A stretch of 64,000 nt of DNA from the NCBI GenBank assembly GCA_963823665.1, contig CAWGMQ010000012.1:116150-180149 (forward strand). The letters run 5' to 3'. Each line of letters starts with the position of its first letter. Position 1 is the stretch's first letter. This document shows, piece after piece, positions 36,358 through 49,200 of this stretch. The notes beneath the pieces are model-generated. The model was not told the origin of the DNA, searched no databases, and saw nothing but the letters and a program-made list of their open reading frames with translations. A program made the position numbers and the translations under genes. The stretch comes from an uncultured Planctomycetota bacterium (GTDB lineage: Bacteria; Planctomycetota; Planctomycetia; Isosphaerales; Isosphaeraceae).

Positions 36358-39300
36358 CTACGACGCGGTCGGCGTGATCGTGTTGCCCTTCTTGGAAATG
36401 GCAAACACGGTGGTGCCGCCAACCGGCGCCCCCGTTGCTCCCCTGACTCCGCTCTCGACGGTGAGCCGGCCGCCGGTTGCGAAGGCCTGGGTGCCGATCA
36501 GGTTCAGATCCACGATCTCGCCGCCCGCGGCGTACGAGACGGTGAACTTGGTGATCGGCTTGAGAACGATCGTCGTCTTCTTCTTCACCTTCTTGGTCGT
36601 GACGTTATCGAGCTGGTAATTGCCAGGATTGCTGGCGCTGCCCTGATCGAGCGGGGCGCTCCAGTCGAGCGCGAAGCCGGTCAGGATCGGTTTGCCGGTC
36701 GGCTTGCCTTTCTTGTTCGTCTTGCGGGTGAAGATGGCCTGCTCGCCGATGACCACCGGTGCCACTACCGGTGGGCTCGACACGGTGGTCGTCGCCTGCG
36801 CGGTAAGTGGGGCTGCCTGGATGACGCCCAGGTTATTGGTGGCGACGCTGTAGAACCCGTAGGTGTTGCCGGATTGGCCTGTGAAGGTTGCCGAGGTCGC
36901 CGTCGTCTTCGTCAGGAACGGCGTGAACGCCCCGCCGTCATCCGAGACGAAGATCTCATACGAGGTGATGCTCGAGGCACCCGGCCCTGGCGAGCCGCTC
37001 CAGCTCACGGTAAAGCTCGTGCTCGTCGTGGTGCCTGGGAGTGCACTCACCATGCTGGTGGGCGGGTTGCCAATATAGGTCATGGCCTGGGCGGCACTCG
37101 GCGTCGCCTGGACGTTGCCCACGTTGTCGGTGGCGACGCTGTAGAAGCCGTAGGAATGGCCGACCTGGCCGGTGAACGTGGTCGATGTGGCCGACGTGGT
37201 GATCAGAGGGGTGAACGGTCCGCCGTCCTCCGAGACGTACACGGTGTAGGACGCGATGCCGGAACCGCCCGGGTCGTCGTGGCCGGACCAACGCAAGGTG
37301 AAAGGTGACGCGCTGCCGGCCGGCAGCGCCGCCACGCTGCTGGTGGGAGGACCGGAATCAATCGGGTTTGCCAGCGGCGCTGTGGCCAGGGAGCTCTGGT
37401 CGGGCAAGCCCGCATCAAAGAACACCGTGGCTTGACTTTTGATGACCATACCCGTTGTGTCGGTTGCTTTCGGCTGAACCGTGTAGCTGACAAATCCTTC
37501 GCCGTCGGGAGGCGTGGTGTCCGGCGCCAGGAAGCCTTCCAGTACGTTGCCGCTCGGCAGGTCCATGGTGCTGGGGTCAATGGTCGTGAACGTCCAGGTG
37601 ACCAGCCCGGTCTGCGAGTTCAGGTCGGCGGTGACATCGACGTAAACGCCCAGAGTGGCGGTGGCGTCCACCTGAGTGCTGAAGCTGGTCAAGCCTTGTG
37701 GTACGGCGATCGTGTAACCGGCGAAGCCGATGGAGCCGAATTGGAAGGTGTTCCAATCGAGGTTGGGATCGAGCTGCTCGGTCACCTCGACGATTTCCGC
37801 TGAGGCCGAGGCTGTCGGCTCATTTTCAAAATTGACGGTGAAAGGCAGTATCTGCTTCTGGGAGATAAAGCCAACGGGACCGGCCAGACTGTTGGGATCA
37901 TCGGGCTGGGCGCTCATGGATGTCCCGTCGCCGCCCGGATTCGCCGGGGGACGAGGGCGGTTCGGATCTCCTGGCAGTGGCACACTCACCATGAAGGTCT
38001 GCGGCTTAAACCTCGCGTCGGGGTAAGATGTCTGAAACGGAACATCGAAAGCCTCGCCGACCGATTCCAGGAATCTCATCGTGGTCGTGACTATCTGCTC
38101 GAGACCAGTCCCGAGGTCTCCAGGTATAAAATCAACGGTGTCGTTGGTGATGTTGTTGACACTGTAATTCACGGTGACCTGGCCGCTGCCGGAAAATGTG
38201 ATGGTTACGCTGCCGTCCCAATGCCGATTGTCGTCGTACTCCTGCCCGCTTCCTGTGCCCGGCGTAAAAAACCTCGCTTCGCCGATGCCGCCCGCAAGAT
38301 TGCCAGGGATGGTGTATACTTCCCTGTAAGGTATGAGTGTGTTCTCCTGAATACTACCGTAATCGGTGTCAAGCAGTAGACTGTTACCACCCCCGGCAAG
38401 TAGTTGGGGAAAGTGGTCCGGATCGAGCGGCAGAGTGTAGCCGGCAGACGATCCGAGGACCATCGAAGGGGTAATCGTACCGTTAGAAAACATGGTCTGA
38501 ATGCCTGTCCGAACCTCGCTTTCGATTGTCGCGATCCTCGCGTTTTGCACCTTGTCCGAAGCATCGACCTCGATAAATCCCTTGGAGACTGCCGACCCTT
38601 GAACAATGTCGGAACTGGGCCCGTAGAACTGCTTCTCAAGGTGAATCGCCGACGTTGAGTCGAGATATTCGTGCCAGATCGACTCGACCTCGTAGCCCCA
38701 CCCAGAAAGAGCTGCGGGGAGCCACACAGAGTGCAGGTAGTTCTGTGCCGCGACGGTTACAGCGTCATCCGGAAACAACGGGTTGGTGTCGCCTGGCGGA
38801 TAGACCGCGTAATCCCTGGTCCCGGCGCCGGTCAGCGTGCCTGACTGGGGAGCCGCGGCCGCCGTCACGTTGTTCGTTGCTGTTGGCGGCAGGTCCGCCG
38901 CGGCGAATCCCGCCGCGGATGAATTACCCACGCCGCTTACGATCGGCTGCAACTGGACCGCACCCAGATTGACCTGGCCGCCGGCGCCGACCTGCACCGC
39001 GTTCTCCGTTGCCATGCTCATTCCAGACGCTGAGATCAAGCTCAGGTCATAGGTTCCCGCGGCCAGACCCGACAATGTGAAATGACCGCTCGAGTCACCA
39101 TCGGCGTTGAACAGGGACATCGGCGTAGTGCTGTTTTCCATTTCCGCCTGAACATACAGGTCCGTCACGACCGAGCCGTCGGCCAGTGTGGCCGATCCGG
39201 TAACTGTTGCCTGCGCGTTCATGATGAGATTGACCGAATTGAAATTTGCTGAGACCGATACGTTATCCCGCTCCGTCTGCGCAAATCCGTCAGCATCAGC

Positions 39301-46239: not shown

Positions 46240-49200
46240 CTACGACGCGGACGGCGTGATTGTATTTCCCTTCTTGGAAATGGCAAACACCGTTGTGCCG
46301 CCAACCGGCGCCCCCGTTGCTCCCGTGACTCCACTCTCGACGGTGAGCTGGCCGCCGGTTGCAAACGCTTGCGTGCCGATCAGGTTCAGATCCACGGTAT
46401 CTGTCGCGGAAACGTAGGAAATCGTGAACTTGGTGATCGGCTTCAGGATGGTCGTGACCTTCTTCTTCACCTTCTTGGTTGTGACGTTATCGAGCTGATA
46501 GTTGCCCGGGATCATCGCGGCGCCGGAATTCAGCGCGGCATTGAACGTAAGACTGAATCCCGTAAGGACTGCCTTTCCGACAGGCTTGCCCTTCTTGTTC
46601 GTCTTGCGCGAGAACACGGCCTTCTCGCCGATGATCAGGGGCGGTACCGGTGGGCTCGACACGGTGGTCGTCGCCTGCGCGGTCGTTGGGGCCGGCTGTG
46701 TAATGCCGAGGTTGTTAGTGGCGACGCTGTAGAATCGGTAGGTGTTGCCGGGCTGGCCTGTGAAGGTTGCCGAGGTTGCCGACGTCTTCGTCAGGAACGG
46801 CGTGAACGCCCCGCCGTCGTCGGAGACGAAGATCTCGTACGAGGTGATGCTCGTCGCGCCCGGGCCTGGTGATCCGGACCAGCTCACGGTGAAGCTCGTG
46901 CTCGTTGTCGTGGCCGGCAGGGACTTCACCGTGCTGGTGGGCTGGCCGTCGACAGAGGTCGTGGCCTGGACGCTCGTCGGCGTCGCCTGTCGATTGCCCA
47001 CGTTGTCGGTCGCGACCGAATAGAACGCGTAGGTGTGCCCCGCGACGCCTTGGAACGGGGCTGAGGTCGCCGTCGTGGCGGTCAAGAACGGCAGGTATGG
47101 CCCGCCGTTGTCGGAGACGAAGACGTCGTAGAAGGCAATGCCCGAGCCGCCGGTGTCGTCGCTGCCGGACCAGCTCACGGTGAAGGCGGGGGACTTTTCC
47201 GTGGCCGGCAGGGCGGTCACCGAGCTGGTCGGAGGGCCCACGTCCAGAGTGTTGAGCGTGGTCGGTGTCGCGATGGCGGCGTTCGTATCAAACACGATCG
47301 ACGCCTGCGCGGAGATCGTCGTGCCGGTCAGTAGGCCGGCCTTCGGTTGTACGGTGTAGGTGAAGTAGCCCTCGCCGTCGTGTTCGGCGTCGTCCACAGG
47401 CAAGAAGCCGGCGTTGATGCCCTCGGGCGGCTCCATCGTCGCCGGGTCGAGTGATTGGAAAGTCACCGTGACGACGCCGGTAGCCTGGTTCAGGTCGAGC
47501 GTGACGGGCACCAGCAAATCGATTCCGTCGGGGCGGAGGTCAATGGTCGTCGAATAATCCGACAGGCCCGCGGGCACGGTGAAGTTGTATGCGCCGAATC
47601 CGAAACCAGTGAACTGGAACGTGCTCGGGTCGAGGTTGGGGTCGAGGGTCATGGTGGCGGTCACGACCTGCGCGGCGGCGGTGGCCTTGGTGGGGTCGTT
47701 CTCGAAATCCACCTCGTACGGCATCGTCCCCGGCTGGATGAAGCCCTGGGGGCCGAAACCCGCGGGGCCGACCAGGTTGTTGGGGTCAATAGGGCCGCCG
47801 ACCTTCACCGGGGCACTGGGGCCATTGAGGTTGACGGGGGCATCGGAGGGCGGCGTGGGTCCGACGGAAGTCGTGCTGGGAGGCGGAAAACTCCCTCCAA
47901 AGTCTCCGTTGGTTTCGGGAGGTTTTCTGCACACCTGGCCCGTCATCGCGACCATGGGGGCGACGATTTGGGGTTGGGGCGCCGGGTAGCTCGACGCGTC
48001 GCAGCTCATGCAGGTCTTGTAGAGAGCCCCTCCTTGAGTAAGAAAGGCCTGGGCGGCATTCTGATAGTCCTGCTGATCCTGCGCCAGGAGCACGGAGGCG
48101 GCCCAGACCTTGTTTAGAGCGATCTGGTCCTGGCGAAGCTGATCCGCTTCCGGCAACACTTTGTCGACCAAGCTGGTTATGTAGCCGGATAGCGGCGTAG
48201 CCGGACCGTTCAAGAGCTCCGACTGGAAGGACTGAAGCAACACCTCAAACGCAGCGAGGTCGTCGAGAACCATGGTGCCCGCAAGAAGACAATCCTGAGC
48301 CGTCGTGGAATCCGTAAATTCAGGTTTGGTTGCTGTCTCGAGTGCAAACTCGGCACTGCGCACAACTAAAAGAAGCCCGAGCAGGCGCTCAGGTGTCATT
48401 AAACTTTCAGACCCCGAGAAAGCAAGATTACCGAAGGCGGCACCCGATGTAACACTTGTCCAATCCTCATTGAATTTCGCGAGGTCTGCAGCGAAGTTCC
48501 CTTTGAGCTGAGCCGGGTCTTGTGCAAGCCCGAGTGAATTCACCAGTGCCCAATCCGATTGCCAAGTGGCCAGGGCAGCCTGTTGGTGCGCGTAGAGGGC
48601 GGCGATCTCTGTGGCAATCAACGCATTGGTGCAGGGGTACTGCTGCACGGCAGTCGCGAAGGCCACCGCTTGCGCATTCGGCGCGGGTTGCGTCAGCAAC
48701 GGGCTCAGAACCGGCGCGCTGGGAGCGGCGGTCGCCGGGGTCACACCACCGCCCTGCGGATCCTCGACGGCAACGGGGCTGATCGCCAGGCTGACGCTGT
48801 TCATCGTCTGGCCCGCCGTGACCATGAGCGTAACCGGCGCCGACGGCTGGAAGCCGGGCGCCGACGCGATCAGAACGTATGTGCCGGGCGCCAGGGTCGT
48901 CAGGGAAAACGTCCCGTCTTGCGCGGTCAAGGCGTCCGCGGCCAGGTTCCCTTGAGCGTCAAAGGCACTCACGTCGACTTGCCCGAGGGCCCCGGCCGCG
49001 TCGCCGGCCGTGCCGTTGACCTCGATGGTCGCGTTGCCGAGGCTGACGTTCCGCAGATTGGCGCCCGTGGTGAGGTTGACTCCGCTGAGAATGGCGGTTG
49101 CGTACCCTGCCGCCTGGACGTCGAGGGTATAGCTCCCCGGGGCCATGCCGGCGATGGAGTAGGCGCCGGAAGCGTCCGTCTGGGCCGCGGCCGTGAAGGT

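Follow-up and report, generated by a model that had tools for sequence, protein, structure and literature searches.

Genes A and B and their variable blocks

The window analysed here is a stretch of 64 000 nucleotides (nt) from contig CAWGMQ010000012.1 (positions 116,150 to 180,149; assembly GCA_963823665.1) of an uncultured planctomycete of the Isosphaeraceae, and it carries two giant paralogous genes, A and B. A sequence-only reading had proposed that they encode an adhesin-like scaffold holding an interchangeable effector in the middle of the chain. We compared both genes with relatives in the same genome (G000, 92% complete), in a congeneric genome (G001) and elsewhere, and found that the block in question, which we call the slot, is variable and probably holds effectors. 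The main features are listed below, with lengths in amino acids (aa).

46240..55524, minus strand: gene B, 3094 aa; beta-helix repeats, CARDB/PPC, nine CarboxypepD_reg, variable slot, DUF7619, two fn3 and a basic immunoglobulin (Ig)-like tail.
36358..44828, minus strand: gene A, plan as in B with three CarboxypepD_reg; read in the assembly as 41805-44828 plus 36358-41832.
37900..38940, minus strand: slot of A, 347 aa; core 37981-38823 is a predicted colicin-M-like domain, with D-x-R at 38232-38224 and D-T-V-D-F from 38142.
47788..48750, minus strand: slot of B, a 320-aa block measured over 47791-48750; core about 47989-48648, a bundle of helices, one of them hydrophobic, bracketed by cysteines.
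37342..37899, minus strand: DUF7619 (CnaA Ig fold) of A; starts with DPN; isopeptide Lys and Asn absent.
47230..47787, minus strand: DUF7619 of B; starts with DPN; the nucleotide match with the syntenic gene of G001 sets in at the DPN codon.

In a Pfam scan, A and B have a common domain order of beta-helix, CARDB/PPC, CarboxypepD_reg, variable block, DUF7619, fn3 and basic tail. The two blocks are unrelated, as had been claimed (best blastp E 0.40), and both terminate at the motif DPN (37899 in A, 47787 in B) behind Pro/Gly-rich linkers. The higher share of A/T-ending codons in the blocks was also confirmed. The fraction of codons ending in G or C (GC3) is 234/347 in the block of A, compared with 1142/1478 in the rest of its frame A2 (Fisher p 1.8e-4), and 216/320 compared with 2355/2775 for B (Fisher p 4e-13). 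However, the description of the two proteins as collinear except for the block holds only for the shared plan and the differing blocks. Pfam finds nine CarboxypepD_reg stretches in B and three in A, and residues 520–960 of A (frame A2) are 54–58% identical to an unrelated protein, P0004, but 30–34% identical to B; over residues 520–1285 the values are 45–58% to the outside proteins P0004/P0001 and 29–34% to B. Since A is closer to P0004 than to B over residues 520–960, the exchanged unit in A is the stalk together with the payload, as we call the content of the slot. In both proteins 513–515 aa follow the slot; thus, the payload is internal, in contrast to the C-terminal toxin by which polymorphic toxin systems are defined. 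The Pfam and NCBIfam scans showed no YD repeats in A or B, in agreement with the earlier statement that no Rhs/YD core is present.

Gene A is split into two frames of 1007 and 1824 aa; the break, at about 41805-41832, is not mentioned in the sequence-only reading. Contigs from two studies (one contig each, depth about 3) span this site unbroken, and so the break is most likely an assembly error, similar to several breaks in paralogs. Further frame breaks typical of long-read insertion/deletion errors are seen in the window at 29410-31104 and 28446-29561, and at L053, L058, L103 and L105.

Slot replacement across the DUF7619 family

The DUF7619 hidden Markov model (PF24595) gives matches of 49.3 and 43.7 bits in the two proteins, against a cut-off of 27. 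In the predicted model of the slot and DUF7619 of B, the predicted local distance difference test score (pLDDT) is 88–98 from DPN onward and below 50 in the 65-residue linker, and the DUF7619 part matches the CnaA domains of pilins and adhesins (SpaD, Z 13.3, root-mean-square deviation 2.8 Å, 132 aligned residues). This likeness extends to the isopeptide stalk domains of the CLIPPER work, where DUF7619 is a predicted isopeptide-bond domain (1000/1981) and where the text available to us does not mention a variable slot (10.1101/2025.04.25.650565; PMC12617251). Unlike those domains, A and B lack the candidate Lys/Asp/Asn triad; the triad positions, as placed by analogy with CnaA and by co-occurrence, hold L/E/S in A and L/M/A in B. 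The Lys after DPN and the last-strand Asn co-occur in 38 of the 42 rows that have the Lys, and A and B are without both.

DUF7619 is found in 13 of 31 related genomes, with 22 matches in about 21 genes of G000 and 13 in G001. Its named relatives are mostly from Planctomycetota, and also from Acidobacteriota, Armatimonadota, Actinomycetota and others. In 20 G000 genes the start of the domain is in frame; DPN stands there in 15 and is absent in five. These five (L066-L070, with open frames of up to 6704 aa) have the domain behind a similar helical region, and are a second, slot-less DUF7619 subtype.

The blocks that precede the DPN domain were catalogued across the family and are variable, not invariant. 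Fourteen G000 genes have a testable slot (112–577 aa), which lies after YD repeats and an Rhs core in 10 and after CarboxypepD_reg in four, including A and B. No two of the 14 slots are related at E ≤ 0.01, and GC3 is in every case lower than in the gene's own downstream DUF7619 region, by just 0.01–0.02 in two of them. Across 73 proteins there are at least 41 slot clusters.

The comparison with the syntenic locus of G001 requires three further features.

55866..56543, minus strand: flavoprotein (PF02441) gene, 5′ of B; locus marker.
45283..45957, minus strand: second flavoprotein copy, 5′ of A; 87% aa identity, one in-frame TGA.
48775..51072, minus strand: CarboxypepD_reg stalk of B; about 41% protein identity to the syntenic G001 gene, with no nucleotide match.

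A flavoprotein–giant gene unit is repeated in tandem here, once with A and once with B, with 86.6% nt identity across the flavoprotein and 78–82% across the gene ends. G001 has a single giant gene at this locus, with a flavoprotein upstream and flanks of 82–88% nt identity. This gene is 87.5% identical to B at the nucleotide level from 47787, the DPN codon, downstream, and shows no match across 47788-51367. The slots of this pair are 21% identical and the DUF7619 domains 91%, and the slot alignment scores below the mean of shuffled sequences (34 versus 37). In two other orthologous pairs the slot is retained (slot versus DUF7619 identity of 94 versus 96% and 92 versus 96%). The slot thus differs at a syntenic locus while orthologous pairs elsewhere keep theirs, and therefore this is a true replacement. 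In another relative, L121, identity to B is 51% across 2272 aa and 69% beyond the slot, with a gap at the slot itself.

In a DUF7619 tree (62 rows, quick search, with 22 of the colicin-M-like rows), payload classes interleave, and the colicin-M-like class needs 12 changes, at least four of them forced by well-supported branches. The labels are nevertheless more clustered than shuffled ones, and the clade of B has helical slots only. The B slot is faintly similar to two of these (matched by 3 and 1 of 300 shuffles), and therefore fast divergence also operates. Taken at the level of sequence, these comparisons show a slot that is replaced by recombination, with crossovers at the DUF7619 start or fn3 repeats on one side and in the upstream Ig/CARDB region on the other. 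Hence, the proposal of an interchangeable block in the middle of the chain is borne out across the family.

Contents of the slots

The model of payload A has a pLDDT of 86.6 and a predicted template modelling score (pTM) of 0.83. Its Foldseek ranks 1–8 are BtpeA, PaeM, syringacin M and colicin M, none at E ≤ 0.001. In the VIA comparison, the best matches are BtpeA (Z 7.2, 4.2 Å, 192 aligned residues), PaeM (Z 5.6, 4.9 Å, 175 residues), pectocin M1 (Z 5.2), syringacin M (Z 4.9) and colicin M (Z 4.0). The alignments to the colicin M family cover 158–192 residues, while interleaved pilins align over fewer than 100, and all whole-domain matches above Z 3.9 belong to the BtpeA/colicin M family. The modelling thus points, with modest confidence, to a colicin-M-like fold for payload A, nearest to the type VI secretion system effector BtpeA of B. 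fragilis. BtpeA is a lipid II phosphatase. By its title, PDB entry 9jdi is the BtpeA structure.

A three-row profile of payload A finds 507 proteins at E ≤ 0.001. D198 (97/98) and R200 (98/98) are conserved, and D198, R200, D228, D231, E253 and D260 are each present in 94–98 of 98 rows. The Asp pair of the D-T-V-D-F motif, which is followed by P-G, is kept in 95 and 97 of 98. Colicin M requires D226, Y228, D229, H235 and R236 (PMC8469651), and the D-x-R of payload A could supply the Arg that is missing from its own motif. Among the 151 relatives analysed, the domain lies ahead of DUF7619 in 30 and stops within 60 aa of the C-terminus in 80, fragments included. The short matches without DUF7619 number 118, and 111 of them were scanned for domain partners, with seven apparent giant-gene fragments left out; the partners are eCIS_core in 52, SH3_3 in 12, OmpA in 6, PG_binding_1 in 4 and LysM in 2. 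Nine of 401 Planctomycetia genomes have a match to payload A, and in the eight other than G000 it is followed by DUF7619 in six and by a different Cys-rich region in two. A colicin-M-like domain also lies internally in a second scaffold type (L248, L252, P0025 and P0116), followed by a Cys-rich region with no DUF7619 match.

Payload A is probably antibacterial, as judged from the modelled fold. The fold and the partner domains point to the bacterial envelope, and the eukaryotic target that the sequence-only reading had entertained is thus a poor fit for this payload. Other leads were few. A PDB sequence search with the payloads found nothing, atlas leads for payload A were weak (Colicin_M in 11% of one cluster, with a low recognition score) and absent for payload B, and searching plasmids for a varied set of colicin M homologs returned mainly near-identical copies.

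Payload B is modelled as an all-helical, Cys-bracketed bundle with one hydrophobic helix (pLDDT 50–83). The structures that it matches are helical bundles of a generic kind (Z ≤ 11), and we do not label it a pore former. A 10-row profile found no homolog among proteins of 500–2000 aa, which is weak evidence. In a leave-one-out comparison that treated helical slots as one family, 8 of 12 members scored above all 200 shuffles, a result inflated by trimming at the cysteines. In G000 neither payload has a match other than itself, and no orphan toxin cassette was seen.

Pfam searches of 45 further slots found Peptidase_C14 in two (above the cut-off), Lipase in one, and Peptidase_C25 in one (below the cut-off). 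By eye, many slots are Gly/Ala-rich hydrophobic hairpins, and some have what we take to be HExxH or His/Cys papain-like patterns. One slot of 577 aa (L060:12580-14310) has imperfect Gly-rich tandem repeats and a poly-Pro linker. The colicin-M-like prediction, the caspase and the lipase uphold the proposal that the slot holds effectors, and show a slot that draws on the domain pool of other toxin-delivery systems.

Proposed mechanism, alternatives and neighbouring genes

What is the function of these proteins? We suggest, with a probability of about 0.6, that A and B belong to a polymorphic effector family in which an internal warhead is framed by an adhesin-like or Rhs body on its N-terminal side and a conserved DUF7619–fn3–Ig stalk on its C-terminal side. 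The giant protein would be exported and then retained on the cell surface or close to it, where the beta-helix/Ig body would bind a neighbouring cell or matrix, and the payload would be presented on flexible Pro/Gly linkers. The N-termini have an Arg-rich LxELExR stretch, which presumably resembles a planctomycete extracellular motif, with no obvious hydrophobic signal, and Pfam made no call there. Payload A would most likely attack or bind the undecaprenyl-pyrophosphate-linked (lipid II type) precursors from which other bacteria build their walls, and payload B would most likely be a membrane-acting or binding module. In the Rhs paralogs the Rhs core would cut just before the payload, so that the stalk would now carry the payload at a free N-terminal tip. 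In A and B we see no dedicated cleavage site, so their payloads would be displayed, or freed by outside proteases acting in the linkers. Self-protection would probably come from topology or target range, with no cognate gene.

Several observations weigh against this proposal. The structural scores for payload A are modest (Z 7.2, 4.2 Å, Foldseek E 0.029), and Z values below 8 can reflect a common arrangement. Its D228-T-V-D231-F motif falls in register with D226-K-Y-D229-F of colicin M in the best local profile alignment, but this is non-significant (E 0.47–0.85, with one colicin M sequence). Unlike the colicin M family, payload A lacks the Tyr and the His-Arg of DxYDx5HR and has the invariant upstream D-x-R instead; identity is below 15%, and there is no match to the Pfam colicin M family (PF14859), nor any Pfam or NCBIfam match to either payload. 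For payload B, neither a set of 5099 candidates nor 121 genomes of the order yielded a homolog at E ≤ 0.001. Most of the 45 further slots have no Pfam match or only generic coiled-coil/PKD matches, and some (L063, L060) contain little beyond Pro/Gly-rich peptides. The statement that no co-oriented immunity gene follows A or B can be extended, for by an open reading frame (ORF) heuristic no small co-oriented gene recurs behind 59 genes (six with less than 700 nt of room) and nine more colicin-M-like loci, which is odd for an antibacterial toxin. Furthermore, the proposed mechanism offers no route by which a payload still tied to its stalk could get to lipid II in the periplasm of another cell.

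The family behaves as a polymorphic toxin system, yet without a C-terminal toxin or a clear immunity gene. As described in the part of PMC3482391 available to us, such systems likewise have large modular exported proteins, one hypervariable recombining domain, and domains common to several delivery systems. Here, by contrast, 250–900 conserved residues follow the internal variable domain, and no adjacent immunity gene or orphan cassette was found. Domains of the colicin M type that are not C-terminal are known from PmnH (PMC5821083; PMC8469651). DUF4157 is a toxin signature of extracellular contractile injection systems (eCIS), and most such toxins have no annotated second domain (PMC11297309). 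In the 52 of 111 relatives with eCIS_core, the domain of payload A makes up the unannotated C-terminal part, although payload A itself sits on a giant stalk. A search of G000 for eCIS_core gave no match, but the search controls were likewise silent. MARTX toxins likewise hold variable effectors well inside a giant conserved protein and are not known to have immunity genes. Unlike them, A and B have no RTX/MARTX repeats or cysteine protease domain (Pfam, NCBIfam), and a single slot in place of an array. In the literature covered (DUF7619, Rhs in Planctomycetes, giant proteins, internal toxin domains and colicin-M-like effectors, subscription papers excepted), this architecture is not described. 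The Lipocone paper (PMC12419801) mentions, in the part available, a novel colicin-M-fold toxin domain.

Alternatively, the proteins may be variable fibrillar adhesins or recognition proteins, in which domain shuffling supplies a ligand-binding or self/non-self tip and payload A is a colicin-M-like binder without catalytic activity. The scaffold is made up wholly of adhesin-type domains, including the pilin-like CnaA fold of DUF7619, and adhesins are known to arise by shuffling (PMC10952558, as far as available). The lack of an immunity gene, the missing His-Arg of payload A and the PEP-CTERM-type genes after some homologs also suit this explanation. We consider it unlikely, however, since the invariant acidic/Arg cluster of payload A looks catalytic, the same domain is found on eCIS_core cargo, caspase and lipase domains occupy slots, and 10 of the 14 G000 paralogs have Rhs cores.

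A different possibility is that the payload is excised as a free toxin by Asp-Pro autoproteolysis at DPN, together with the Rhs DPxG cut on the N-terminal side in the Rhs forms. Asp-Pro self-processing is found in known modules such as the FrpC self-processing module and the VWD GDPH site. The motif is strongly conserved in 145 DUF7619 rows (D 137, P 138, N 134), and the five slot-less paralogs, which have a different, conserved-looking upstream region, do without it. However, in all 15 inspected metagenome proteins (of 22 distant matches), DPN stands directly behind another domain, Ig-like by eye, with no slot, and in the B model it lies at the edge of a well-predicted Ig fold. No autoprocessing fold downstream of the D-P bond is among the structure matches listed for the B DUF7619 model. 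DPN is first of all a domain cap, and Asp-Pro cleavage there is only a candidate.

The second Asp-Pro site put forward for B is the following.

48751..48777, minus strand: PVAVEDPQG, Rhs-motif-like in B, not conserved; probably chance.

The peptide is indeed present, but its reading as an Rhs-type signature is weak. PxxxxDPxG occurs in 138 of 2000 shuffles of B and is missing at the same junction in all seven helical-slot relatives inspected, in A and in P0001. Thus, Asp-Pro autocleavage as the means of release in A and B, as first proposed, finds no backing at either site. The Rhs link, absent from A and B themselves, is real in the paralogs, 10 of 14 of which have YD repeats, an Rhs core and DPxG before the slot, as in Rhs toxins and bacterial teneurin-like proteins (10.1101/2025.11.11.687626; PMC11067744). 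The teneurin-like proteins have, in the text available, paired immunity genes, whereas A and B lack the YD shell and the chain of the paralogs continues into DUF7619 and the tail. A pattern for the Rhs form gave 32 matches, of which three were spurious; the 29 retained share the two core aspartates, of which the pattern itself fixed the second. Counted by eye, an Arg lies 13 residues before the first core Asp in 29/29, a spacing we take to be that of YenC2, and five residues before it (the BiTLP spacing) in 17/29. The slot follows directly behind DPxG (median 176 aa), with 248–902 aa after it. A tail of this size far exceeds the cargo of about 15 kDa of teneurin-like shells (10.1101/2025.11.11.687626, in part), and a second cut would be useful there. 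On balance we regard excision at DPN as quite improbable.

Least probable of all, and very doubtful, is that these are surface exoenzymes that scavenge or lyse prey or dead cells with no role in kin competition: long stalks bearing protease, lipase and wall-precursor-type domains, the lack of immunity genes and the association of giant proteins with predation in PVC bacteria (Omnitrophota; 10.1101/2023.11.21.568195, in part) would agree with it, but locus-specific replacement between congeners and 14 unrelated slots in one genome fit an arms race better than nutrition, and many slots are hydrophobic hairpins, not hydrolases.

The polymorphic effector proposal can be extended, tentatively and at rather less than even odds, to a larger claim. 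DUF7619 would mark widespread, undescribed polymorphic weapons with an internal slot and no immunity gene, about 15 per genome in some planctomycetes; Rhs self-cleavage would give a tethered tip, with a possible second Asp-Pro cut at the Ig domain, and payload A would be a rewired colicin-M-like lipid II toxin (D-x-R for His-Arg) that is common as eCIS cargo. Toxin-discovery pipelines focus on C-termini and toxin–immunity pairs, and so an internal, immunity-free slot would be systematically missed; the region before DUF7619 is a simple rule for harvesting new effectors. The effector proposal also gives a testable role to giant secreted planctomycete proteins, and a candidate function, as a divergent colicin-M-like enzyme acting on cell-wall precursors, to more than 500 unannotated domains, many of them eCIS cargo.

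The neighbouring genes include one weak immunity candidate.

35991..36344, plus strand: 117-aa ORF with two CxxC and one hydrophobic segment, convergent on A (L230).

A homolog lies at the same place in G001, 44% identical between flanks of 82–88% nt identity. It stands there beside an unrelated payload, and other homologs occur away from such genes, which makes a cognate immunity role unlikely. The convergent WD40 gene (34813-35961) was rejected as immunity gene because other colicin-M-like slots lack a counterpart of it in their neighbourhood. Several homologs are followed by small co-oriented genes for secreted proteins (L109:5216-5938, L138:9191-9838, L249 and L252), which are possible surface anchors; that of L138 has a PEP-CTERM match.

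Window positions 31256-46181, approximately, which hold a redoxin–CarboxypepD gene, an HNH gene (34266-34766), the WD40 gene, A and the second flavoprotein copy, have no syntenic G001 counterpart except the small ORF and paralogous matches. On the minus strand at 16488-26803, a tandem array of Ser/Thr kinase–TPR genes follows an extracytoplasmic function (ECF) sigma factor gene (26951-27565), with apparently fewer copies in G001. Both genomes are about 16 Mb, which is very large for bacteria, with contamination estimates of about 3%.

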